Part shown: piece after piece, positions 7,562-48,704 of the stretch
Numbering within the stretch: the first letter of the stretch is position 1
Layout of the letters: every line of letters begins with the position of its first letter
Origin: Candidatus Aenigmatarchaeota archaeon
GTDB taxonomy: Archaea > Aenigmatarchaeota > Aenigmatarchaeia > QMZP01 > QMZT01
NCBI GenBank assembly: GCA_043808015.1
Contig: JAZDFI010000008.1
Location: forward strand, 13,271-77,270
Direction of reading: 5' to 3'
DNA length: 64,000 bases
Notes under the pieces: model-generated
Seen by the model: only the letters and a program-made list of their open reading frames with translations
What the model was told of the DNA's origin: nothing
Database searches by the model: none
Made by a program: the position numbers and the translations under genes

Positions 7562-8212
7562 TCACTCCTCAGCAAGCTTGTTTTTCTTCATGTAAGCATC
7601 AACCGATTTCAACATCCTGCGCGACACGTCTTCGATGCCGCCCACGGCGTCAACCTCTATTAGCACGCCTTTCTTCGTGTAGAAATCCACAAGCGGCTTC
7701 GTCGCCTTTTCATACACTTTCAGGCGCTTTTTGACCACGTCGTTTTTCTGATCCTCGCGGACGTAAAGTGCGCCTTTGCATTTGTCGCACATGCCGCTCT
7801 TCTTCGGCTTCGCGAACTTGTGGTGGTATATTTCCCCGCAATATCCGCATGTCAGGCGGCCTGTCATCCTTTCCAGGATGTTCCTGTTCGGCGCGACGAA
7901 GTTGATGACCATATCGATAGCGGCCGTCTTTTCGAGTTCTTTGGCCTGCACCAGCGTCCTGGGGAAGCCGTCGAGAATGAACCTCTTCCGCCCCTTGATG
8001 GCTTTCTTCATTATTTCCATAACTAAAGCGTCCGGCACCAGCTCGCCGCGGTCCATGTAAGCCTTCGCCTTTCTGCCTATTGCCGTGCCTTTCTTTGATT
8101 CGTTGCGCAGCATCTCGCCCGTGCATATGTTGGGTATCTTCATTCTGGTTGAAAGTATGCTGCACTGGGTTCCTTTGCCTATGCCCGGCGGGCCAAGGAG
8201 AATTATTTTCAT
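7562..8212 (-). CDS. adk: Adenylate kinase (long type with zinc-ribbon lid)
   Basis: MKIILLGPPGIGKGTQ P-loop and lid CGYCGEIYH...CDKCKG. Stop lies 4 nt before the ndk start. Confidence 0.9.
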   Translation of the reverse strand: MKIILLGPPGIGKGTQCSILSTRMKIPNICTGEMLRNESKKGTAIGRKAKAYMDRGELVPDALVMEIMKKAIKGRKRFILDGFPRTLVQAKELEKTAAIDMVINFVAPNRNILERMTGRLTCGYCGEIYHHKFAKPKKSGMCDKCKGALYVREDQKNDVVKKRLKVYEKATKPLVDFYTKKGVLIEVDAVGGIEDVSRRMLKSVDAYMKKNKLAEE

Positions 8213-8404
8213 GAATGTTCCTCTAGCTAGGATTATTATTCTTCAAAACGCATGCTTAAAACCTTTTCGCTACGCTCTCGTTTCTATCCCTTTCCTTATG
8301 CTCTTTATGAAATCCTCTGGCTTGACGTCGAACTTGACCTCCACTTTGGTCTGTAATGTCCTTGCTAACAACTTATTCATGTCTCCTATGACAATAATGT
8401 TACA

Positions 8405-9545
8405 ATGAGATTTAACATTCTGCAATATCTGCCTAAAGAAACAAAGATAATGATTGACAAAGATTTAGCGCAAATTCTATTTGCCAATAAAAAACTTTGC
8501 GAATTTTCCAGAGAATACGGAATCGGCTTAAAAAATATGAGCAGATACAGAAACTGCACCCGCTCGATTCCTATAAAATTATTTCAAAAAATAGCTCAAA
8601 ATTCTCCCATTAGAATGGAAGAATTCCAAGGAAAGATGCGAATTAAAATAAACAGAATGGGCAAGTATGTCAAAATAGGACCTGTTATAAACATTGATGA
8701 AAAGTGGGTATATATTTCGGAACTCATTAAAGGTGATGGTTATATCCCGTCTACTTACTGGTATATAGTTTTTGTTAATAAAAATGAAAATTTGATTAAT
8801 GTTGTCAAGAACTTTTTTTTTATCTTTGGGCTTGCCTGAAAAACAAATTGATATTCGAAGAAGATCAGATGCAACATTCCTTACAGTCAGATCATCTCCT
8901 ATTGCATACATCCTCAACGGAATACTTGGAGTGCCTGTTGGGAAGAAGGGCGAGATCGGTATCAAAAAGTTTGTTATGAATGATAAAATATTGTCGGTGG
9001 CGGCCGTTAGAGGGGCATTTGATGCGGAAGGTGCCGCTACATTCACCGGGTCGCGGAGGATATCCATAACGTCAAATAGTCAAACATGGCTCCTATATTT
9101 AAGTAAAATATTGAAGAATCTCGGTATAAAATCCACAATATATGAAGAACGGAAAGGTAGAAAAAAACCGATATATCGTTTGTTTGTGCAACATATTATT
9201 AACATTCGCAGGTTTTATGAAATAGTCCAACCTCAGCATACGCAAAGGAGTAGAAAACTTAGAGAAATCATTGAAACGTACAGCAAACCATATTTTGGTG
9301 TCGGGTATCTGAGGAAACCCATACTTCTTTCGATAAAATCAGGAAATACGAGAAGATCAAAAATAGCAGAAGACATATCACAAAATCCTATAACAGTTGG
9401 AAATAATATCAAATGGTTAAGAAAAAGAGGACTGATAAGGCCTTCAAAAATGGTTTATACGAACAATGGTGGCTTCTATGAATATATTTTGACAGAGATG
9501 GGGCTGAAATACCTAAGAGATGACACTCTCTCTTTTTTTGATTAG
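8405..9545 (+). pseudogene. Free-standing double-motif LAGLIDADG endonuclease-like gene with N-terminal HTH and C-terminal winged helix, interrupted by a frameshift
   Basis: ORF 8405..8839 carries motif 1 (SELIKGDGYI). ORF 8799..9545 carries motif 2 (AAVRGAFDAEGAA) and a wHTH-like tail (ITVGNNIKWLRKRGLI). The frames switch at a T9 run (8813..8821). The region is visibly AT-rich. Confidence 0.6.
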
Positions 9546-11240
9546 CTTGGTTATTTCGCTAATGAAGTCATCAATCTTAACGTTAAATTTCACCTTACCA
9601 TCTCTCGTTCTAACTGCCAAAGTGTTATTTTTTTCCTCTTTATCGCCAATTGTAATTACAAAAGGTATTTTATTTACAGCCGCATCCCTTACTTTGTATT
9701 CCACTGTGTTCGATTTCAGGTCGCATTCCGCCCTTATCCCCGCATTTTCAAGGCTTTTCAAGATTTCACCGGCCGCCTTATTGTTCCTGTCCGTGAAGGA
9801 CAGGACGCGCACCTGGACAGGCGAGAGCCAGACCGGAAGGTTGCCGTCAAAGTGCTCGAGAAGTATGCCTATGAACCTTTCCAAAGAGCCGTATATGACC
9901 CTGTGCAACATTACCGGCCGATGGTCCTCGTTGTCTTCCCCTTTGTACGTCAGGTCGAACCTTTCCGGCATGGCGAAGTCGAGTTGTATGGTTGCGCACT
10001 GCCAGGTCCTGCCCTGGCTGTCCTTGATGTGATAATCAATTTTCGGGCCGTAAAACGCACCATCGCCCTTGTTTATCTTGAAGTTCATTTTTTTGTGTTT
10101 GAGTGTCTCCTCGAGCTTCGCCTCCGCCTTGTCCCATATTTTGTCGTCGCCTATCCTTTTCTCGGGCCTGGTGGAAAGCTCGACGTGGTATTCGAACCCG
10201 AACTTTTTGTAAAATTTATCGACCAGTTCCATTATCCTTCCTATCTCGCTCTCCAGTTGTTCTTCGGTGCAGAAGATGTGCGCGTCGTCCTGAGTGAAGC
10301 GAATTACCCTGAAAAGCCCTGTGAGCACGCCGGACAGCTCCTGGCGGTGGACTACGCCAAGCTCGCCGACGCGAAGGGGGAGATCTTTGTAGGACTTGGG
10401 CCTGTTCTTGTAAACCATCATCCCTCCGGGGCAGTTCATGGGCTTGACGGCAAAGCTCCGGCCCTCGTACTCGGTTATGAAGTTGTTCTGGTATTTCTCC
10501 CAATGGCCTGAAATCTGCCACAACTTCTTGTCCATGATTTGCGGAGTCGAAATCTCCTGGTATCCAGCCTTCCTGTGCTGCTCCCTCCAGAAGCTGATTA
10601 GTTCGTTATATATGGTGAGACCCTTATCATGCCAGAACACCATACCTGGAGCGACTTCGCTGAAGCTGAAGAGGTCCATCTTCTGGCCGAGTATGCGGTG
10701 ATCGTTGTCCTTGAGGTTATCCTTGTCGAGCCGCGTCTTCGAGATGTCTCTCATAAGCTGCTTGTAGTCAAAACTCTCTTCCTTCGTTACCTTGGTTTTT
10801 GTTTTGGTCCTCTCGACCCCCTCGGGCAGTATGTCCCTGCTGAGCTCCGAAAGAGGATGCCCCTTGCACTTTATGTCGAAGGCCTTGTACCAGCCGAAGG
10901 GAGCGCGCTTAACCGGGACTTTCGCTTCGATTAGCGCTTCTTCCACGCCCTTGAGCACGTAGAGAGCGGAATCCGGCGACGATAGATCGCTGGACAGGTG
11001 GGCATACGGATAAACGACTACGTTTTTGGCGTTTACCTGGTTTCTGACGGATATGATTTCCTTGGCGGCTTTCTTGACCACGTCATCGAGGTTTGCCTGG
11101 TCCAGCTTCTCGACCGCGCTGAACACGACGAGGGCGTCTTCGACTCGTACGGGTTTCTTCTCGATTTCCTCCGCGCTTGAAATGGCTTTCTTCTTCGGCT
11201 CCCACTCTATGAAATCCGAATGCAGCAATAATATCTTCAT
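9513..11240 (-). CDS. thrS: Threonyl-tRNA synthetase, archaeal type with N-terminal archaeal editing domain
   Basis: 575 aa. Starts MKILLLHSDFIEWEPKKKAI. Class II core (FWHDKG, RVIRFTQDDAHIF) and a C-terminal anticodon-binding domain. Confidence 0.9.
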   Translation of the reverse strand: MKILLLHSDFIEWEPKKKAISSAEEIEKKPVRVEDALVVFSAVEKLDQANLDDVVKKAAKEIISVRNQVNAKNVVVYPYAHLSSDLSSPDSALYVLKGVEEALIEAKVPVKRAPFGWYKAFDIKCKGHPLSELSRDILPEGVERTKTKTKVTKEESFDYKQLMRDISKTRLDKDNLKDNDHRILGQKMDLFSFSEVAPGMVFWHDKGLTIYNELISFWREQHRKAGYQEISTPQIMDKKLWQISGHWEKYQNNFITEYEGRSFAVKPMNCPGGMMVYKNRPKSYKDLPLRVGELGVVHRQELSGVLTGLFRVIRFTQDDAHIFCTEEQLESEIGRIMELVDKFYKKFGFEYHVELSTRPEKRIGDDKIWDKAEAKLEETLKHKKMNFKINKGDGAFYGPKIDYHIKDSQGRTWQCATIQLDFAMPERFDLTYKGEDNEDHRPVMLHRVIYGSLERFIGILLEHFDGNLPVWLSPVQVRVLSFTDRNNKAAGEILKSLENAGIRAECDLKSNTVEYKVRDAAVNKIPFVITIGDKEEKNNTLAVRTRDGKVKFNVKIDDFISEITKLIKKRESVIS

Positions 11241-19999: not shown

Positions 20000-20007
20000 A
20001 AGCGTCA

Positions 20008-20349
20008 CTAGCAGCTGGAATGAATTAAGGCGACCGCTTTCTTCTTGTCGGCCAGGAAGCCGTTGAACATCTTAGCAGCCTTGGGCGAAAGGTCATGGTA
20101 TATCTCGATTTTTTTGTCCTCAGCGGCCTGGGCGACTTCCTCGGGGATTGTGACGTGGCCTTCCATGCCAGTGCCCAGAATAATGAGTTCAGGCTCTTTC
20201 TCGGCAAGCTTCAGGAACTCGTTTATGCCGAACTCGTGCGATTTCGTGCGGAATTCGATCTTGCCGTCCCACCACACAATCATGTCGGAAAAGTAGGTCT
20301 TGCCGTCTATATCGACCTCGTCGAACCTGACATCAGTTATCTTTACCAT
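20008..20349 (-). CDS. Mth938-domain (DUF498) protein
   Basis: MVKITDVRFDEVDIDGKTYFSDMIVWWDGK...PELIILGTGMEG. Start set at ATG 20349 because the longer ORF runs into the tRNA gene. Confidence 0.6.
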   Translation of the reverse strand: MVKITDVRFDEVDIDGKTYFSDMIVWWDGKIEFRTKSHEFGINEFLKLAEKEPELIILGTGMEGHVTIPEEVAQAAEDKKIEIYHDLSPKAAKMFNGFLADKKKAVALIHSSC

Positions 20350-20382
20350 GTTTATTATTGGTATTGGAGCGGATAAAAAGAA

Positions 20383-20547
20383 TAGCCCCGGGCGGATTCG
20401 AACCGCCGTCAACCGGTTTCTCCCGATTCGGGTTTTTGCTGAAGCTTTTTATTAAAAAGCTTCGTCCAGAGCCGGTTATCCTTAACCCCCCTCTCAAATC
20501 GCTTTAAGAAAAATTTTCAAAGGGATTGGCCACTAGACTACGGGGCT
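20383..20547 (-). tRNA. tRNA-Gln(CUG) with two introns (D-loop and canonical 37/38)
   Basis: Hand fold of the reverse complement: AGCCCCG-TA-GTCT-AGTGGCCAA-[44 nt]-GGAT-A-ACCGG-CTCTGG-[48 nt]-A-CCGGT-TGAC-GGCGG-TTCGAAT-CCGCC-CGGGGCT-A. The spliced product is 73 nt. Confidence 0.75.
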
Positions 20548-21422
20548 ATATTCAACATTCTTCTTACGTGCTTTATATTATTAAATCTTATGTTTGTTTT
20601 ATATTTTTCTATCTCCTCCTTTTTAGAGAGGAAAAATTGATCTAAAATTATTTTAGATGGAGAAAAACCAAGTGATATTAAACCACTTCTCGCGTCAAAA
20701 AGCAAATTTTTAGATTTATTTTTAAAGGATATTCTCAATAATTTTCTATCTCGTCTTGACATTCTAAATATTGATCCATCTGTATCTATCAAACCTCTTA
20801 TACATGATTTTAAAAAATTGGTATCAGTTTTTATCCATTCAGGTATTCCAACATTATTCACTTTTTTATTACCGTTTTTTAACCCAAAACTTTCCAATAT
20901 TTTTATAATTTCTTTGCTGTATACAGTTATGAATATTTCATTTTTTCTCATCTCGATTTTTGAATTTATTTTAAAAATGTCATCTACCAGAGGTTTTACA
21001 AAATTCAATAAATAATCTCTTTCTGTTTTCAAATCTCCAGCTATTTTTAACGCATATACGCCCTTTTCTCCGTTCCAGTAGAGATTACCATCGCCTAAAA
21101 TTATCCCTATGATTTCAGCCAATTCGATTGATTTTTCAGGAATCATAATTTTTTTGGTTTTACCGGGGGAATTTTTACCTCCCAGTACTTTGCCCCAATT
21201 GTCTTCCAGTTTTTTATCGATATGTTTGTAGAATTCAACTTCGGCAACCTGACACAATTTTTTAAAAACTTCTGAATTTAACGATACTTTTTCATTGAGT
21301 AAATCTATTCTCAAATAATCTTTACTAACTCCCACCATTTTACTCAATTGCAGCCATGTTTTATTTCTTTTCGCTTTCAATATAAGTTCCCTCTGCTTAC
21401 CATTTTTTAATATTACCCGCAT
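20538..21422 (-). CDS. Free-standing double-motif LAGLIDADG endonuclease-like protein with N-terminal HTH
   Basis: Motif 1 AEIIGIILGDGNLY, motif 2 IRGLIDTDGSIF. Very AT-rich coding sequence. The last 10 nt, including the TAG stop, overlap the 5' end of tRNA-Gln. Confidence 0.7.
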   Translation of the reverse strand: MRVILKNGKQRELILKAKRNKTWLQLSKMVGVSKDYLRIDLLNEKVSLNSEVFKKLCQVAEVEFYKHIDKKLEDNWGKVLGGKNSPGKTKKIMIPEKSIELAEIIGIILGDGNLYWNGEKGVYALKIAGDLKTERDYLLNFVKPLVDDIFKINSKIEMRKNEIFITVYSKEIIKILESFGLKNGNKKVNNVGIPEWIKTDTNFLKSCIRGLIDTDGSIFRMSRRDRKLLRISFKNKSKNLLFDARSGLISLGFSPSKIILDQFFLSKKEEIEKYKTNIRFNNIKHVRRMLNIAP

Positions 21423-21573
21423 TAAATTATTTAGTTTTTCTCACTTATAAATTTCCTTGTACACTGGACTACATATTAAAAAGTAAAATAATGTCAAATT
21501 ATTGTAACTTTTTAGTGATAAAACTATTTATAAATAAAAAAATCAAGTATTTACAATAAAACGGGTGACAGGT

Positions 21574-22953
21574 ATGGACTTCGGTTTCGAGAGCTTCGAT
21601 GCCGGTTTTGCAGGCTTTGACGTGGATGTGGAAGACTTCCATATCAGCAAAAAGAAGAAATACGACAGGATATGGAAGGTTGGTGCTGGCGGCAGCGTGT
21701 GCTCCAAACCTGTCATTGATGGCAATGTAGCTTACTTTGGGTCGCTTGATCATAATGTCTATGCTATTGATTTGAATACCGGCAAAGAGCTTTGGAGATT
21801 AAAGACTAACGGCCTTATACTTGATTCCTCTCCATCTCTGCATGATGGAGTGCTGTTCATCGGAACCTTTGGTCACGACGTTCATGCCATAAACGCTTAT
21901 GAAGGAACCGAGTTGTGGAAATTCCGTGCAGGAGCGGAGATAAACTCCAGACCTCTCGTTTTCAACGATATGGTATTTTTCACGTCAAAGAACGGCTACA
22001 TGTATGCTGTGAGCGAATCCTCTGGAAAGGAGCTGTGGCGCTTCAGGACGGGAGCGGAAATGGTTTCAGCACCGACCCAATACGATGGCAAAATAATAAT
22101 CGGCTCATACGACGGATACCTTTATTGTGTTAATATCGACGGTAAGGAACTCTGGCGCTTCAGAACAGGAGCGGAAATAGAAAATGACGATTATTTTCTC
22201 ATAGATGACGGCATAATATACTTCGGCAGCTTCGACAACAATCTTTATGCCGTGGACATAAAGACAGGCCGTGAAGCATGGCGCTTCAAAACGGGCAAAT
22301 ACGGCAACTGCGGCGTGCCGAGGATGCACAAAAAAGTCATATATTACGGATCGAGGGACGGTATATTCTACGCCATAGACTCCATTACGGGAAAAGAAAC
22401 CTGGCGCTTCAGCACAGGCAAAGAGATAATAGACAAGGGCCCCCTGGTATACAAAAACAAAATCTATTTCGGCGCGGGCGACAACAATGTTTATTGCCTG
22501 AACCTCGAAGGCGAAGAACTCTGGCGCTTCAAGACCAGCGGCGGAGTTTACACGTCTGTAGTTGAGCACAAAGGTACGCTCTACTTCGGCAGCTGGGACT
22601 GCCACCTTTACGCAGTCGATTCAGCTACGGGCAAAGAGGTGTGGCGCTTTGCGACTAGCTCGCTTACGCCAGCGCCGTTGCCGCCTGCATACGAATGCTT
22701 TGAAGTGGAAATCAAAAAAGGCGCTCACATAGAGGACGCGATATCTGAAGAAAAATATTCCAGTAAAAAACACGATCACGTTTCTCTTTCAAACTACCAG
22801 ATAACGAGCGAGTATTCGACTAAGAGCGAATACAAGCAGAAGAGCGATTACGACGCCCATTGGGTAATGTTTGAAGGTATACTAAACGAGGAGGAACTGA
22901 CATGTCTTTCGAATTTGGTGGATTTGAATCAGCGGACTTTGATGTCGAGCTAG
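21574..22953 (+). CDS. 8-bladed PQQ-like beta-propeller repeat protein, paralog 1
   Basis: Eight repeats of G-K-E-L-W-R-F-(R/K)-T-G spaced about 40 aa apart. No signal peptide. Acidic F/D-rich N-terminus. ATG at 21574 (the track start 21565 is GTG). Confidence 0.75.
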   Translation: MDFGFESFDAGFAGFDVDVEDFHISKKKKYDRIWKVGAGGSVCSKPVIDGNVAYFGSLDHNVYAIDLNTGKELWRLKTNGLILDSSPSLHDGVLFIGTFGHDVHAINAYEGTELWKFRAGAEINSRPLVFNDMVFFTSKNGYMYAVSESSGKELWRFRTGAEMVSAPTQYDGKIIIGSYDGYLYCVNIDGKELWRFRTGAEIENDDYFLIDDGIIYFGSFDNNLYAVDIKTGREAWRFKTGKYGNCGVPRMHKKVIYYGSRDGIFYAIDSITGKETWRFSTGKEIIDKGPLVYKNKIYFGAGDNNVYCLNLEGEELWRFKTSGGVYTSVVEHKGTLYFGSWDCHLYAVDSATGKEVWRFATSSLTPAPLPPAYECFEVEIKKGAHIEDAISEEKYSSKKHDHVSLSNYQITSEYSTKSEYKQKSDYDAHWVMFEGILNEEELTCLSNLVDLNQRTLMSS

Positions 22954-24254
22954 AAGATATCGAAATTAAAAGAACGAAAAAATTCGACAGGATGTGGGAA
23001 GTCGGCTTCGGCGGCAGCATCAACAACGGAGTAAGGCTTGTTGACGGCATAATATATTTCGGAGCCATGGACAACTACGTTTACGCTGTCGACGCATCGG
23101 ATGGCAAGGAAGTTTGGAAATTCAGGACAGGCGACGGCATATGCGAAAGCACGCCGGAAGTCTCGGGAGGCATAGTGTACGTCGGTTCTTTTGATCATAA
23201 TCTTTACGCGATTGACGCCAAGACTGGTACGATGAAATGGGCTTTCAGAACAGGCGGCAAGGTAGACGCATCCCCCATCGAAAGCGAAGGGATTGTTTAT
23301 GCCGGCTCAAAGGACTGTTATATCTATGCCGTTGACTGCAAGTCTGGCAAAGAAGTATGGCGCTTCAGAACAGGAGACGAGATAGCCTCGGCTCCGACAC
23401 TCCATGACAACGTGATTTTCAACGGCTCTTTTGACAAGAATTTCTACTGCCTGAACAAGAAAACGGGCAAGGAGATTTGGCGCTTCCGCACTGGTGGGGA
23501 AATACACAACGACAGGCCTTTCCTCGTGGTTAATGAAAGAGTATTTTTCACGTCATTTGACAGCCATCTTTACTGCGCTGATGTTAAAACGGGTAAAGAA
23601 ATATGGCGTTTTAAGACCGGACGATACGGCAACGCTGGTAGTCCTGCGTATAACAACGGAGTCATATATCACGGTTCCAGAGACGGCATATTCTATGCAA
23701 TTTCACATGAAGGCAGAGAGTTGTGGAGATTCAGAACAGAGAGAGATGAACCTATAGACGTAATACCACTGATATACAAAAACAGGATATATTTCGGAGC
23801 AGGTGACGGTAACTTTTATTGTCTTGATCTGAACGGAAAGGAAATGTGGAGATTCAGAGCTTCACACAACATTTACACTTCTGCGGCCGTGTTTAACAAT
23901 GTGATATTTTTCAATTCGATGGATTGCCACTTATATGCGCTGGACGCGGACACCGGAGAGGAAGTGTGGAGATTCGCCACGTCGACGATGACAATCTCAC
24001 CATTACCGCCGCCTTATGCATCCTTCAAACTCGAGGTCCGTAAATCACAAATATCTGAACATTTTGATATCAAAGAAAAATACAAGAAAAGCAAAGAAGA
24101 AACAGTGTCGCTGTCCGATTACCACATCAAAAGCGATTATGCAACAACTAGCGAATACAAGCAAAAAAGCGACTACGACACGCATTGGGTCATGCTCGAT
24201 GAAGTGTTTGCCGACGAACCTGAAATTTTCTGCGGAATTCTGAAGAAAGCCTGA
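22902..24254 (+). CDS. 8-bladed PQQ-like beta-propeller repeat protein, paralog 2
   Basis: Same architecture as paralog 1. The start is preceded by GAGGAGGAA and lies 52 nt inside the 3' end of paralog 1. Confidence 0.75.
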   Translation: MSFEFGGFESADFDVELEDIEIKRTKKFDRMWEVGFGGSINNGVRLVDGIIYFGAMDNYVYAVDASDGKEVWKFRTGDGICESTPEVSGGIVYVGSFDHNLYAIDAKTGTMKWAFRTGGKVDASPIESEGIVYAGSKDCYIYAVDCKSGKEVWRFRTGDEIASAPTLHDNVIFNGSFDKNFYCLNKKTGKEIWRFRTGGEIHNDRPFLVVNERVFFTSFDSHLYCADVKTGKEIWRFKTGRYGNAGSPAYNNGVIYHGSRDGIFYAISHEGRELWRFRTERDEPIDVIPLIYKNRIYFGAGDGNFYCLDLNGKEMWRFRASHNIYTSAAVFNNVIFFNSMDCHLYALDADTGEEVWRFATSTMTISPLPPPYASFKLEVRKSQISEHFDIKEKYKKSKEETVSLSDYHIKSDYATTSEYKQKSDYDTHWVMLDEVFADEPEIFCGILKKA

Positions 24255-24336
24255 CAATGCTTTTTAAGCAAAGGCCCGTTAAATTTTATTTAGCTTTTAT
24301 GGCTCTTATTTAACAAAATAAGACAAAGTGATAAAT

Positions 24337-25554
24337 ATGGCGAACGAGGACATTCGGAAGCGACGGCTGAAAGATATAGTCGAAGAACTCGACAACTTCC
24401 GCGGGCGCCACACGGAGCTAATATCTGTTTACATACCAGCAGGATTCAACCTCTACAAGGTGGTCGAGCAGATAAACAGCGAGAAATCTACGGCCCAGAA
24501 CATAAAGTCGAAGACGGTTCGCAAGAACGTCATGTCCGCGCTGGAGCGCATAACACAACATCTCAAGCTCTACAAGCAGACGCCTCCGAATGGCCTGGTC
24601 ATTTTCGCAGGCAACATTTCCGAGCGTGAGGGCGTTGACGACATAGAAATATACGCTCTGGAGCCGCCGGAGCCGCTTAACCAGCGGCTTTACAGGTGCG
24701 ACCAAAAGTTTGTCCTTGACCCGCTGAAAGACCTCATACGCGAGCGCGAGATATTCGGCATAGTTCTTATAGACAAGTCAGAGGCCGACATCGGCCTGCT
24801 GCACGGCAAGAAGGTCAGGCCGCTCAAGCACCTGGACTCGATGGTGCCGGGCAAGACTGAAGCGGGTGGCTGGTCGCAGGCACGATACGCTCGAGTGCGC
24901 GAAGGCCTGCTGAACGACTTCATGAAAAAAGTCGGCGAAATCGCTTCCCAAAATTTCAGCGACCAGAAGGATTTGCTGGGCGTGATTGTAGGAGGACCCG
25001 GCCCGATAAAGGAAATGTTCGCGAGAGGCGATTTCCTGAGATACGACTTCAAGAATAAAATAATCACGGTAGTCGACACGTCTTATATGGGCGAATACGG
25101 CCTCGAGGAAGCGGTCAATCGTGCCGAGGAGGCGCTCAAGGAAGCGAGCGTCATGAAAGAGAAACGAATTCTCATCCGCTTTTTCAACGAGCTCGGCAAG
25201 GATTCCGGCCTGGCGGTATATGGTCTCAAAGAGACCGTGGAAGCGCTCAAATCAGGAGTCGTCGAGTTGTTAATGGTTTCAGAGCATTTGGACTGGGTTA
25301 AAGCAAACATAAAATGCCTCAATTGCGGCGAGGAAAGGGAAGTCGTAATGCTGCGGGACAAGCTGGAGAGCCTGAAATGCGAAAAGTGCAGCGAGCTCTA
25401 CGAGATTCTGGCAGAGAAAGACCTTACGGACGAGATAATCAAGATGGCCGAGGAAATGAACACGAAAGTCGAGATGGTTTCCGCCGACACGAAGGAAGGC
25501 GCGCAACTGAAAGACATGGGCGGAATCGGAGGGATTCTCAGGTATAAGGCTTAG
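24337..25554 (+). CDS. prf1: Peptide chain release factor aRF1 (GGQ position reads GGW)
   Basis: NIKS (AQNIKSK) and YxCxxxF (YRCDQKF) are present. The middle domain reads VPGKTEAGGWSQARYARV where aRF1/eRF1 have ...GGQSxxRFxRL. A zinc-ribbon insert sits in the C-terminal domain. ATG at 24337 (the track start is GTG). Confidence 0.85.
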   Translation: MANEDIRKRRLKDIVEELDNFRGRHTELISVYIPAGFNLYKVVEQINSEKSTAQNIKSKTVRKNVMSALERITQHLKLYKQTPPNGLVIFAGNISEREGVDDIEIYALEPPEPLNQRLYRCDQKFVLDPLKDLIREREIFGIVLIDKSEADIGLLHGKKVRPLKHLDSMVPGKTEAGGWSQARYARVREGLLNDFMKKVGEIASQNFSDQKDLLGVIVGGPGPIKEMFARGDFLRYDFKNKIITVVDTSYMGEYGLEEAVNRAEEALKEASVMKEKRILIRFFNELGKDSGLAVYGLKETVEALKSGVVELLMVSEHLDWVKANIKCLNCGEEREVVMLRDKLESLKCEKCSELYEILAEKDLTDEIIKMAEEMNTKVEMVSADTKEGAQLKDMGGIGGILRYKA

Positions 25555-26057
25555 CCGCCGCGGGGTTCATATTCTTTTTTGTAAACAATCCAGAAAATTA
25601 CAGGTATTGTGATTCCAAGCACAGCCCCGCCGATCAGGTCTGCCGGCCAGTGGACGCCCAGGAAATAGCGCGACGCAGCCACGAGTAACGCTAGCGCATA
25701 AAGCGGCAGAAGCTGCTTCCTGCGCAGGGCCAGATAAAGCGACGTCACGACTGCGAACATCGCAGTGGTGTGGCCGGACGGGAAGGAATTATCTATGTCG
25801 CAGTACGGGTTGCAGTTGGAAGCGACGACGCACGGTATGCAAGGCCTTTCTATTATTATGAGGTTTTTCATGATCAGAACGACGAGCAGCGATATCAGCA
25901 CGCCGGGGATGTAGATGTAAAGAACCTTTCTGAAAAGCTTCCTTTTCTCAGATGACAGCTTCTTCCTGAAAATGAAATACGCCAACAAAAGGATTGCGGT
26001 AGAAGCGGCCCATATCTGCGGCTCGCCTATGTTAGTGACCAGATACCAAAAGTCCAT
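25551..26057 (-). CDS. PAP2-family phosphatase (membrane)
   Basis: Motifs SFPSGHTTAMFAV and SRYFLGVHWPADLIGG. ATG at 26057 (the track start is TTG). Confidence 0.8.
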   Translation of the reverse strand: MDFWYLVTNIGEPQIWAASTAILLLAYFIFRKKLSSEKRKLFRKVLYIYIPGVLISLLVVLIMKNLIIIERPCIPCVVASNCNPYCDIDNSFPSGHTTAMFAVVTSLYLALRRKQLLPLYALALLVAASRYFLGVHWPADLIGGAVLGITIPVIFWIVYKKEYEPRGG

Positions 26058-26104
26058 AAGAACCAATTATGAATTGGTAAAACCTGATTAAATAGTCAGC
26101 GAGT

Positions 26105-27106
26105 TTACTGCTGCGAACCCGTGTGCACGTGCTTTATCTCGATGGCTTCTTTCTGGCTGAAGTTTCTGAAAGACCTGCGGAAGAAAACCAGTCTCTTTTT
26201 CGCGCCAGGGACAGAGCCTTCGATGAATATGTAATTACCCTTGACTTCTCCGTAGTTGATGAAGCCGCCGTCGATTTTAACGCCTTCCTTTCCTATCTTG
26301 ACGAGCCTCTTGTTGTATTCGGTCCTGGTCTGGAAGCCCATCTGGCCTGCCTGAGCGATCGCGCCGGGCAGCACTCTGCTCGGCGTGACAGGACCCATGG
26401 TTCCGAGGTGGCGCCTTTTCAGCTTGTTTTTTCTGCTCCTGATTTTGATGCCGAACCTCTTGACAGGACCCTGATAACCTTTCCCCTTCGACACGGCTTT
26501 AACATCGAGAAATTCGCCTTCGGCGAAAACCTCGGAAACATCAAGCTCCTTGCCCAGCTTCTCCTTAACGTATTTCCATTTGTCTTCAACTGAACCAGAA
26601 AGGTCGAGTTCAAAAACTTCAGGCTTCTTCTTCCCTATCGCCGTATCTCTAGGCTGCGTGTGGACAAGAAGACGAACGTCCGCGACGTCGTTAAGCCTGC
26701 CATCGAAATCAGAAACCTGTTTAGTCGCCTTTTCTGGCAGGTTGAGTTTTCTGGCAAGATCTTTTTTCTGGTCCTTGGCCCATATCATGCCCATGTTGGT
26801 GTAGGTGTTTATGTATTTGCCGTAGACCTTGATGCCGAAAACATAAAGAGGTGGACATTCGAAAACCGAGACGGCCCTCGATATTTCCATGCCGTGCGTC
26901 GGGCTCTTTTTTCTGCTGTCCATGAATATGACGTGCGTCATGCCCGCCTTGTAGCCGGCGAATTCGACTGGCTTCGTCGTCGCGCCCATGATCTTCTGGA
27001 CGCTCACAAGCTGCGGCGAATGCTTTAGTCTGGGATAAATTCGCTTCGCCCTCTTCTTCGGCCAGAATGCTCTCGAACCGGCCCTGGGTTTGTGTCCTCT
27101 TGCCAT
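26105..27106 (-). CDS. rpl3: Ribosomal protein uL3
   Basis: MARGHKPRAGSRAFWPKKRAKRIYPR... is a typical archaeal L3 N-terminus, and the length (333 aa) fits. Confidence 0.9.
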   Translation of the reverse strand: MARGHKPRAGSRAFWPKKRAKRIYPRLKHSPQLVSVQKIMGATTKPVEFAGYKAGMTHVIFMDSRKKSPTHGMEISRAVSVFECPPLYVFGIKVYGKYINTYTNMGMIWAKDQKKDLARKLNLPEKATKQVSDFDGRLNDVADVRLLVHTQPRDTAIGKKKPEVFELDLSGSVEDKWKYVKEKLGKELDVSEVFAEGEFLDVKAVSKGKGYQGPVKRFGIKIRSRKNKLKRRHLGTMGPVTPSRVLPGAIAQAGQMGFQTRTEYNKRLVKIGKEGVKIDGGFINYGEVKGNYIFIEGSVPGAKKRLVFFRRSFRNFSQKEAIEIKHVHTGSQQ

Positions 27107-46400: not shown

Positions 46401-47992
<1,592 letters not shown>

Positions 47993-48668: not shown

Positions 48669-48704
48669 GAAACATTGGCGAGTTGTCCTGACAAAAAGGA
48701 TCTG
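48669..48704 (+). promoter_or_regulatory. 5' arm of the 23S processing stem
   Basis: GAAACAT-TGGCGAGTTGTCC-TGACAAA-AAG-GATCTG pairs with 51817..51855. Helices of 6, 7, 13 and 7 bp are separated by 3-nt bulges (bulge-helix-bulge-like). Confidence 0.7.

Follow-up and report, generated by a model that had tools for sequence, protein, structure and literature searches.

A two-gene array of PQQ-like beta-propeller proteins with conserved, predicted disordered termini in a Candidatus Aenigmatarchaeota archaeon

The propeller gene pair and its expression signals

The DNA analyzed here, referred to as the window, is a stretch of 64,000 nucleotides (nt) from a Candidatus Aenigmatarchaeota archaeon (assembly GCA_043808015.1, contig JAZDFI010000008.1, positions 13,271 to 77,270). 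It carries two adjacent and overlapping genes, gene 1 and gene 2, each encoding an eight-bladed beta-propeller of the type named after pyrroloquinoline quinone (PQQ). The gene pair is the minimal two-cassette form of a gene array that is specific to the Aenigmarchaeota (DPANN archaea). The features of the pair are listed in Table 1, with positions counted from the first nucleotide of the window.

Table 1. Features of the propeller gene pair. SD, Shine-Dalgarno sequence; aa, amino acids; pLDDT, predicted local distance difference test score of the AlphaFold2 model.
Feature	Position	Strand	Details
TATA-like box TTTATAAATA	21527..21536	+	~40-47 nt upstream of gene 1
SD-like GGGTGA of gene 1	21563..21568	+	GGTG(A/G) at the same position ahead of first genes at other loci
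Gene 1	21574..22953	+	459 aa; cassette propeller protein of orthogroup 'A'
Gene 1 N-terminal acidic Phe-rich motif MDFGFESFDAGFAGFDVDVE	21574..21633	+	aa 1-20; predicted disordered, pLDDT<50
Gene 1 eight-bladed PQQ-like beta-propeller	21634..22722	+	aa 21-383; AlphaFold2 pLDDT>90, 32 strands
Gene 1 conserved C-tail EKYSSKKHDHVSLSNYQITSEYSTKSEYKQKSDYDAHWVMFE	22750..22875	+	aa 393-434; pLDDT<50; invariant Tyr 395, 408, 414, 420, 426; contains recombination crossover (~22825-22850)
Gene 1 C-terminal extension	22876..22953	+	aa 435-459 and stop; sequence dictated by gene 2 SD and N-terminal codons
SD GAGGAGG of gene 2, within gene 1	22888..22894	+	GGAGG 22890-22894, 7 nt ahead of ATG 22902
Gene 2	22902..24254	+	450 aa; cassette propeller protein of orthogroup 'D', last in the array
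52-nt overlap of gene 1 and gene 2	22902..22953	+	gene 2 in -1 frame; gene 1 stop 22951-22953
Gene 2 N-terminal acidic Phe-rich motif MSFEFGGFESADFDVELEDI	22902..22961	+	aa 1-20; pLDDT<50
Gene 2 conserved C-tail EKYKKSKEETVSLSDYHIKSDYATTSEYKQKSDYDTHWVMLD	24075..24200	+	aa 392-433; four S-(D/E)-Y hexads; pLDDT<50; Y394/407/413/419/425
T5 run	24261..24265	+	directly after gene 2 stop; possible archaeal terminator

An earlier note, made from the sequence alone, had described the two genes as tandem overlapping paralogues encoding eight-bladed PQQ-type propellers. This description is borne out by the 51% identity of the two proteins (BLASTP, 447 aa, E=1e-160, both termini included), by the eight G(K/T/R/E)E.W(R/K)F motifs present in each translation and by AlphaFold2 models with eight blades. 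The note had also placed the start of gene 2 at a GGAGG site 52 nt inside gene 1, which matches the overlap exactly, and had reported that neither protein has a signal peptide, in agreement with a maximum 19-residue Kyte-Doolittle mean below 1.0 in both (0.96 for gene 1 and 0.93 for gene 2). Neither protein contains a signal peptide, transmembrane segment, hydrophobic segment, lipobox or C-terminal anchor, and the first 22 residues carry a net charge of -7 (gene 1) and -8 (gene 2). By sequence type both proteins are cytoplasmic, a location predicted from the lack of a hydrophobic N-terminus or transmembrane segment.

The start of gene 1 is assigned to the ATG at 21574 with the support of the family alignment, and a GTG at 21565 falls within the SD. 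An TTTATAAA element is located at an equal distance upstream of the first genes of arrays at other loci, and the TATA-like box upstream of gene 1 probably acts as a promoter. Downstream of gene 2, the T5 run is followed by a TATA-like element and an SD for the archaeal release factor gene aRF1 (24328..), which suggests that the array is transcribed as a separate unit.

Propeller fold and family membership

The AlphaFold2 model of the gene 1 protein, built from a 43-sequence alignment, places eight blades within aa 21-383 with a pLDDT above 90, and the strand at 21-26 pairs with the strand at 376-381. The model of the gene 2 protein is likewise an eight-bladed propeller with a pLDDT above 90. 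Both proteins belong to the Pfam families PQQ_2 (PF13360; 246.5/176.3 bits, cut-off 27.6) and Beta-prop_ACSF4 (PF13570; 233.9/221 bits, cut-off 133). The propeller repeat is near-consensus and highly symmetric. Foldseek searches against the PDB matched the designed eight-bladed proteins Cake, Bagel8, Scone and Tako8 as well as BamB, tetrathionate hydrolase and YxaL, with TM-scores normalised to the target of up to 0.92 among the closest matches. By sequence, Cake10 is matched with E=1e-131 and the best natural relative with a solved structure is 3hxj, a 330-aa archaeal PQQ-like propeller (E=8e-53).

A PQQ-dependent dehydrogenase (quinoprotein) is recognized by a full-length match above the cut-off to a model of ~530-600 positions, by a propeller of ~560-690 aa with loop insertions that form the PQQ/metal pocket, and by a periplasmic signal peptide. 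Partial, repeat-level matches of both products to the quinoprotein dehydrogenase model PF01011 and to the PQQ alcohol dehydrogenase model TIGR03075 are what would favor such an enzyme. The PF01011 matches are repeat-sized stretches of only ~30-40 of the 595 profile positions, however, and the scores for TIGR03075 (108/128 bits, cut-off 480) and TIGR03074 (58/65 bits, cut-off 833) fall far below the curated thresholds. The quinoprotein dehydrogenases of the PDB (560-690 aa) align in short stretches only, whereas the propeller here spans ~360 aa with short loops and no insertions, and the signal peptide is missing. No full match to a characterized PQQ-dehydrogenase was found in Pfam, PDB sequences or NCBIfam. 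Membership in this enzyme class is ruled out by the cut-offs, the propeller size, the short loops and the missing signal peptide, and the two products are almost certainly not quinoproteins.

BamB membership is ruled out as well, by scores below the cut-offs of TIGR03300 (173/184 bits, cut-off 285) and NF008351 (119 bits, cut-off 423), by an acidic N-terminus with neither a hydrophobic segment nor a lipobox, and by the archaeal host, which is evident from the archaeal rRNAs, aRF1 and FEN1 in the window. The proteins of gene 1 and gene 2 are bare, near-consensus propellers that lie outside the dehydrogenase and BamB families.

A non-classical signal within the acidic N-terminus could also direct the two proteins to export or to the cell surface, where they would be S-layer or adhesin-like, as are many archaeal proteins with PQQ/YVTN propellers. 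A location at the cell surface or in the periplasm is known for many PQQ-like propellers and for the closest natural relative with a solved structure, and propellers are frequent in the surface proteins of DPANN archaea (PMC5498576). This is quite unlikely given the absence of any signal peptide, transmembrane segment, lipobox or C-terminal anchor, the strongly negative charge of the first 22 residues and a C-terminus that consists of a hydrophilic tail.

Conserved termini

The propeller is flanked in both proteins by short segments that lie outside the fold. The N-terminal segment has the family consensus MDFGFEGFES.DFDVELED.EVKK..KFDR. and is located directly before blade 1, with Phe or Ile at position 3, while the C-terminal tail has the consensus EEKYK.KKEETVSLSDYHI.SEY.TTSEYKQKSDYD..FVMFE (both from the 43-sequence alignment), or in pattern form EKYK.KKEETVSLSDY...SEY...SEYKQKSDYD..FVMFE. 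Five Tyr residues of the tail are invariant, and the last four are spaced at exactly six residues. The tail, rich in Lys, Ser and Tyr, includes four hexads of the form S-(D/E)-Y-x-x-x. In a divergent subfamily of ~420 aa, which consists mostly of singletons, each terminus is present in modified form and the protein stops immediately behind the Tyr hexads; the hexads are therefore the core of the tail.

Conservation was measured as mean column entropy across 127 non-identical full-length proteins from related loci. The values are 1.11 for aa 1-20 and 1.01 for the tail at 393-431, compared with 1.79 for the propeller core and 2.50 for aa 432-459. Both termini are predicted to be disordered yet are conserved above the propeller core, and the conservation of the non-propeller ends that was first seen in the two window proteins extends to their relatives. 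At the invariant tail positions the synonymous codons are saturated, with TAC and TAT used at a ratio of ~1:1 for Tyr, both AGY and TCN for Ser and all six codons for Leu. Because the invariant residues use all of their synonymous codons, the constraint on the tail acts on the protein and not on the DNA.

Junction between cassettes

The consensus of 96 cassette boundaries is ...TTTGAAG...ATGGAGG..GA.G..ATATGGA.TTCGGATTCGAAGG.TTTGA., and the GGAGG SD and the ATG are conserved at these junctions. The SD is placed in the codons for 'MEGEE(I/L)W' of the upstream gene, and the '(I)WTSDLK' that follows in the upstream protein is an out-of-frame reading of ATGGACTTCGGATTTGAAG, which encodes MDFGFE. 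The overlap measures 52 nt in 61 of ~100 junctions and 46-73 nt in the remainder; all lengths are 1 mod 3, which puts every downstream gene in the -1 frame. The junction between cassettes is fixed: the end of an upstream gene also carries, in the -1 frame, the SD of its downstream neighbor together with that neighbor's first ~17 codons.

This arrangement bears on the extreme C-terminus of gene 1. Weakly conserved positions of the junction track the third codon positions of the downstream frame, and the last genes of arrays, including gene 2 of the window, have no C-terminal extension and diverge after FVMFE. Residues ~435-459 of gene 1 are conserved only through their encoding of the SD and N-terminus of gene 2 in another frame. 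Since the extension is missing from last genes and its entropy reaches 2.50, the tail of gene 1 is real up to ...WVMFE, and what lies beyond is the gene 2 start region. The conserved C-terminal tail proposed in the earlier note accordingly stands as far as ...DYD..(F/W)VMFE, and the part beyond, at aa ~435-459, does not, as it consists of out-of-frame gene 2 SD and N-terminal codons.

The same overlap raises the question of whether the conservation of both termini is a by-product of constraints on the DNA, such as overlapping frames and gene conversion between tandem copies, with no function of the protein involved. The last ~25 residues of internal genes are set by the SD and N-terminal codons of the next gene, and recombination occurs within the tail-coding segment, as described below. 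The Tyr-hexad tail sits upstream of the overlap, however, and its invariant residues use every synonymous codon, including both codon families of Ser. Both motifs are also kept in singletons and in the last genes of arrays, and the N-terminal motif persists in first genes, where no cassette overlaps from upstream. For aa 1-20 and 393-434 an origin in DNA constraints is very improbable and is largely refuted by these observations.

A constant -1 frame across ~100 junctions with overlaps of 46-73 nt would also be expected if programmed -1 ribosomal frameshifting fused the cassettes into multi-propeller polyproteins. This is even less probable, as the junction consensus lacks an X XXY YYZ slippery heptamer and no conserved RNA structure is present (alifold -1.58 kcal/mol with 0 compensatory pairs; window junction z=+1.03). 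Every downstream gene is preceded by a conserved SD of its own and begins at a conserved ATG, with the motif starting at Met1, and the frame relation is accounted for by descent from one junction module. A hairpin that sequesters the SD at the junction was ruled out by the lack of conserved structure and of covariation. With neither a conserved RNA structure nor a slippery heptamer at the junction, frameshifting and SD masking are both unlikely.

Distribution and array architecture

A search of 5.8 billion proteins (E<=1e-10) gave 1517 matches, the best of which is only 55% identical, and every named match is from Candidatus Aenigmarchaeota. The 43-sequence alignment behind the consensus of the termini was drawn from these matches. 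When one genome of each GTDB species was scanned for the tail pattern YK[QT]KSDY[DS], 45 loci were recovered, all from Aenigmatarchaeota or unnamed archaeal metagenome-assembled genomes (MAGs), with several loci per genome. The array has so far been found in Aenigmarchaeota only. The related loci and the window together amount to 759 kb and contain 164 propeller open reading frames (ORFs), of which 138 have both termini and the others are shortened or frameshifted. Related genomes carry 1-11 tandem overlapping copies per locus. The description of the locus as a tandem pair is correct as far as it goes and is incomplete in one respect: the pair is what is left of a larger array of recombining cassettes, which is not visible from the window sequence alone.

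Three genomic slots are distinguished. In slot 1, Aenigmarchaeota contigs share the order FEN1, DUF498, array, aRF1, PAP2 and the ribosomal protein genes L3, S11, S4 and S13; the neighbors are ~45-50% identical at the protein level, and the number of propeller genes is 2, 5, 6 or >=7. Slot 2 lies between S2 and nadC-enolase-rpoK and holds 1 or 3 copies, and slot 3 is a singleton adjoining a T2SSE ATPase. The two main slots adjoin S13-S4-S11(-L3) and S2/enolase/RpoK, as seen at loci L051/L053 and at 24328-27106 of the window. In many archaea these flanking genes form a single ribosomal-protein/RNA-polymerase supercluster; if so, the arrays sit at break points of that supercluster in Aenigmarchaeota.

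The neighborhood of slot 1 shows several local differences between genomes. In the window, a free-standing LAGLIDADG-like ORF of 294 aa (20538-21422, reverse strand; PF14528) is located between DUF498 and the array in a region of low GC content (0.37 for 20001-22000). At loci L001, L004 and L005 the array directly follows the DUF498 gene with no intervening ORF, and for this reason the 294-aa ORF looks like an inserted mobile homing-endonuclease gene. The aRF1 downstream of the array at L004 (12036-14774) is 912 aa in length with an intein (Intein_splicing and LAGLIDADG_3) within eRF1 domain 2, and the aRF1 of the window (24328-25554) has no intein. At L001 (6672-8052, equal to L033 9052-10432) the first cassette of a two-gene array in a 1.1-Mb contig is split into ORFs of 169 aa and 277 aa by a frameshift or as a pseudogene, which suggests ongoing cassette decay.

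An array is also present directly upstream of the threonyl-tRNA synthetase (ThrRS) gene at seven other loci. In the window, the ThrRS gene (9513-11240, reverse strand) has no propeller gene at this place and adjoins a second free-standing LAGLIDADG-like ORF of 248 aa (8799-9545, forward strand, also 8405-8839; PF14528, E=4e-13). This region is another island of low GC content (0.40 for 8001-10000), and the ORF is only weakly similar to the first one (32% over 71 aa).

Recombination within the arrays

When clustered at >=58% identity, the propeller proteins fall into 42 orthogroups, and the median pairwise identity is 46%. The arrays of different genomes are different ordered subsets of these orthogroups, and both their size and their composition vary widely. 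The window array reads 'A D', and that of the closest relative, locus L005 from a Lac Pavin Aenigmatarchaeota MAG, reads 'A U Q Y D'. Gene 1 is 85% identical to the first gene of the five-gene L005 array and gene 2 is 85% identical to its last gene.

In a sliding comparison, gene 1 of the window follows gene A of L005 with 64-100% nucleotide identity up to ~22833, including 100% identity in 22789-22833. From ~22834 onward it follows gene Y of L005 with 73-93% identity, versus 53-69% for A. Because the identity switches from A to Y, gene 1 of the window is a chimera of two cassettes of the five-gene array. The crossover lies within the segment of gene 1 that codes for the conserved 'SEYKQKSDYD'. 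The two-gene state is best explained, judging from these alignments, by an unequal homologous exchange in which the tail segments of A and Y recombined and three cassettes were lost, which makes the conserved junction a substrate of recombination as well.

Shortened members of the family are found at other loci. An ORF of 177 aa at L022 (6693-7223) contains both termini and no full propeller; it was considered as a separate adaptor, which is ruled out because the ORF stems from an internal deletion that joined the repeats of blades 1 and 8. This ORF and P0130, P0134 and P0135 are intact ORFs of 170-212 aa that combine the N-terminal motif with one or two blades and a complete Tyr-hexad tail, and all go back to deletions between blade repeats. 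Such minis recur in several clusters at 50% identity, and some may be functional 'termini-only' proteins.

Occurrence of the termini in other proteins

The earlier note had proposed that the termini are docking or localization signals and that they might recur as a sorting signal elsewhere in the genome. A 48-position profile of the tail only was compared with 1.84 billion cluster representatives (E<=1e-3). The 44 matches are family members, C-terminal fragments, deletion minis, two apparent chimeras and spurious repeat proteins. Neither terminal motif is present on any other ORF within the 759 kb of Aenigmarchaeota DNA, which is also the extent of the search with the N-terminal motif. As the tail profile and the 759-kb scan recover only this family, the termini are family-specific and are not a signal shared with other cargo. 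A general sorting signal is ruled out by these two results and by the lack of a hydrophobic segment. The recurring sorting signal is thereby unsupported, and docking is still the best reading of termini that are conserved and predicted to be disordered.

The two apparent chimeras are P0145 (130 aa), which has the family tail behind an unrelated N-terminal part with a signal-peptide-like segment and a CxxCH motif, and P0138 (301 aa), in which the tail follows what appears by eye to be a periplasmic-binding-protein-type sequence. These may be real fusions or chimeras of assembly or gene calling. Against PDB sequences, the sole match of the tail profile is the ubiquitin segment 'TLSDYNIQKE', which reaches significance against polyubiquitin alone, where the scores add up. 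Profile positions 11-26 (gene 1 aa ~398-413), (E)TVSLSDYHI.SE, resemble residues 48-64 of ubiquitin (KQLEDGRTLSDYNIQKE), with an E of ~0.4 for single ubiquitin. This resemblance is most likely due to chance.

Variable and conserved surfaces of the propeller

Mapped onto the AlphaFold2 secondary structure, entropy is highest in strand A, the innermost one (2.86), followed by the A-B loops (2.23) and then the D-A loops (2.09); the outer strands C (1.42) and D (1.17) and the B-C loops (1.30) are conserved. With the usual propeller topology, this would center the variation on the central channel and the top face. Near-invariant residues that are specific to one blade include G241, G244, R261 and G263 in the conserved consensus stretches GKYGN (241-245) and SRDG (260-263). 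From the loop topology, the two stretches are expected to be neighbors on one face of blade 6, where they form a candidate common binding patch. Two cysteines, likewise specific to one blade each, are near-invariant family-wide, C185 in 'FYC' (window ~22126, blade 4) and C343 in 'WDCH' (window ~22600, blade 8).

Other features of the window

The window also contains an archaeal 16S rRNA (46401-47839) and 23S rRNA (48693-51828). A 109-nt tRNA match at 54658-54766 is not called by ARAGORN and presumably contains an intron.

Proposed function

The best explanation that combines these observations is that the family consists of diversified binding modules with family-specific handles for assembly or docking, a proposal to which about even chances are given. 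The propellers would be non-catalytic binding modules, each paralogue having a ligand of its own by virtue of its variable inner strand and D-A loops. The invariant Phe-rich head and the Tyr-hexad tail would serve as the handles, either joining family members into mixed oligomers or polymers of co-translated paralogues or docking every member on a single dedicated partner. Translation of neighboring cassettes would be coordinated through the embedded start sites. Self-assembly is slightly favored because the handles occur on nothing else and neighboring cassettes have coupled start sites.

Several observations weigh against this proposal. In the AlphaFold2 model of the gene 1 protein (43-sequence alignment) the termini are not docked in cis, with a pLDDT below 50 for aa 1-20 and 384-459. 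When the gene 1 tail is fused ahead of the full gene 2 protein (45-sequence alignment), all tails are disordered and no trans-like docking is seen, a negative result that is not decisive. The wide variation in array size and composition argues against a complex of fixed stoichiometry, and singleton cassettes exist. Clustering of the ORFs within 4 kb of the arrays returned housekeeping synteny only (DUF498, FEN1, aRF1, KaiC-like, L3, PAP2, ThrRS, nadC) and no dedicated partner, and no partner or ligand was identified for the cassette proteins. The missing signal peptide is, in addition, still compatible with unconventional export.

The termini could instead be signals that dock or target the proteins to a separate machine shared by all of them, with the family acting as interchangeable substrate receptors or effectors and not as a self-assembling scaffold. 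Candidates for the machine are an unfoldase/protease, an enzyme that modifies the Ser/Tyr hexads, and a dedicated route of export or cell-to-cell transfer into a host. Conserved short motifs in disordered segments usually bind folded partners, and AlphaFold2 gave no docking within the family. The diversity of paralogues, the variation in copy number and the shuffling of cassettes resemble host-interaction repertoires, and DPANN archaea are mostly symbionts. One singleton adjoins the T2SSE-type ATPase and a 1905-aa protein. This neighbor was seen once only, however, no candidate partner gene recurs near the arrays, and the presence of the tail on no other cargo type in 1.84e9 representatives is unusual for a general targeting signal. 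A shared machine is considered possible and clearly less probable than assembly or docking by family-specific handles.

A more speculative extension of the handle proposal, and one that is rather unlikely to be correct in full, regards the arrays as a recombining repertoire of >=40 ancient propeller types. These would co-assemble through their heads and tails into mixed polymers or condensates, or would be passed to one dedicated transfer machine, and would supply ultra-small symbiotic archaea with variable binders of ligands or host factors. If this holds, the 52-nt junction would be a translation start, a protein motif and a recombination site in one, and the array would be an undescribed kind of prokaryotic variable-receptor system.

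Significance

The fold and the repeat are already well known from BamB, from archaeal PQQ-like propellers and from the designer proteins Cake and Scone. In the literature searched, no paper was found that describes this family with its disordered termini, Tyr hexad repeat, 52-nt junction, phylum-restricted arrays of 1-11 cassettes and the recombination scar of the window, and the termini, hexad repeat, junction and arrays are not captured by Pfam or NCBIfam models. Disordered termini that are more conserved than the fold, together with a regular Tyr hexad repeat that has no known counterpart, form an unusual combination. The 52-nt overlap encodes at once the end of one protein, the ribosome-binding site of the next gene and the N-terminal motif of the next protein, and the scar in the window shows how arrays shrink. 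The genomes of Aenigmarchaeota are only ~1 Mb in size, yet this one family takes up as many as 11 or more tandem genes at a locus and occupies several loci; it must matter for the biology of these archaea. If the termini are assembly or docking handles, they would offer an experimental entry into DPANN cell biology and a natural modular scaffold built on the repeat of the designer propellers.

Comparison with known systems

The closest sequence and fold matches are 3HXJ and the designer proteins Cake, Scone, Bagel8 and Tako8. These are isolated domains that have neither the Phe-rich N-terminus nor the Tyr-hexad tail. BamB (YfgL) of the bacterial BAM complex is similar in being a bare, non-catalytic eight-bladed propeller of ~360 aa with the same repeat (Foldseek E~1e-22, sequence E~1e-23), and it works as a protein-binding scaffold. 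BamB belongs to diderm bacteria, in which it is a lipobox-bearing lipoprotein of the periplasm, whereas the cassette proteins come from archaea and lack a signal peptide. The cassette family is further set apart by its conserved motifs at both termini and by the organization of its genes in cassettes, neither of which is found in BamB.

In logic only, the family may be compared with the F-box/WD40 or DCAF substrate receptors, a large paralogous family in which a variable propeller provides specificity and a short conserved motif docks on a common partner. Their motifs have no sequence or structural similarity to the cassette termini, and no cullin/Skp1-like partner was identified here. The organization of the genes resembles the arrays of bacterial variable surface-protein genes, which share conserved boundaries, variable cores, copy-number change by unequal recombination and shuffled order. 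The cassettes differ from the silent donors of the bacterial arrays in that, judging from the sequence, all are apparently expressed ORFs with their own SD and ATG. Also unlike the bacterial arrays, the products of the cassettes have no export signal and the junction is a 52-nt out-of-frame overlap.

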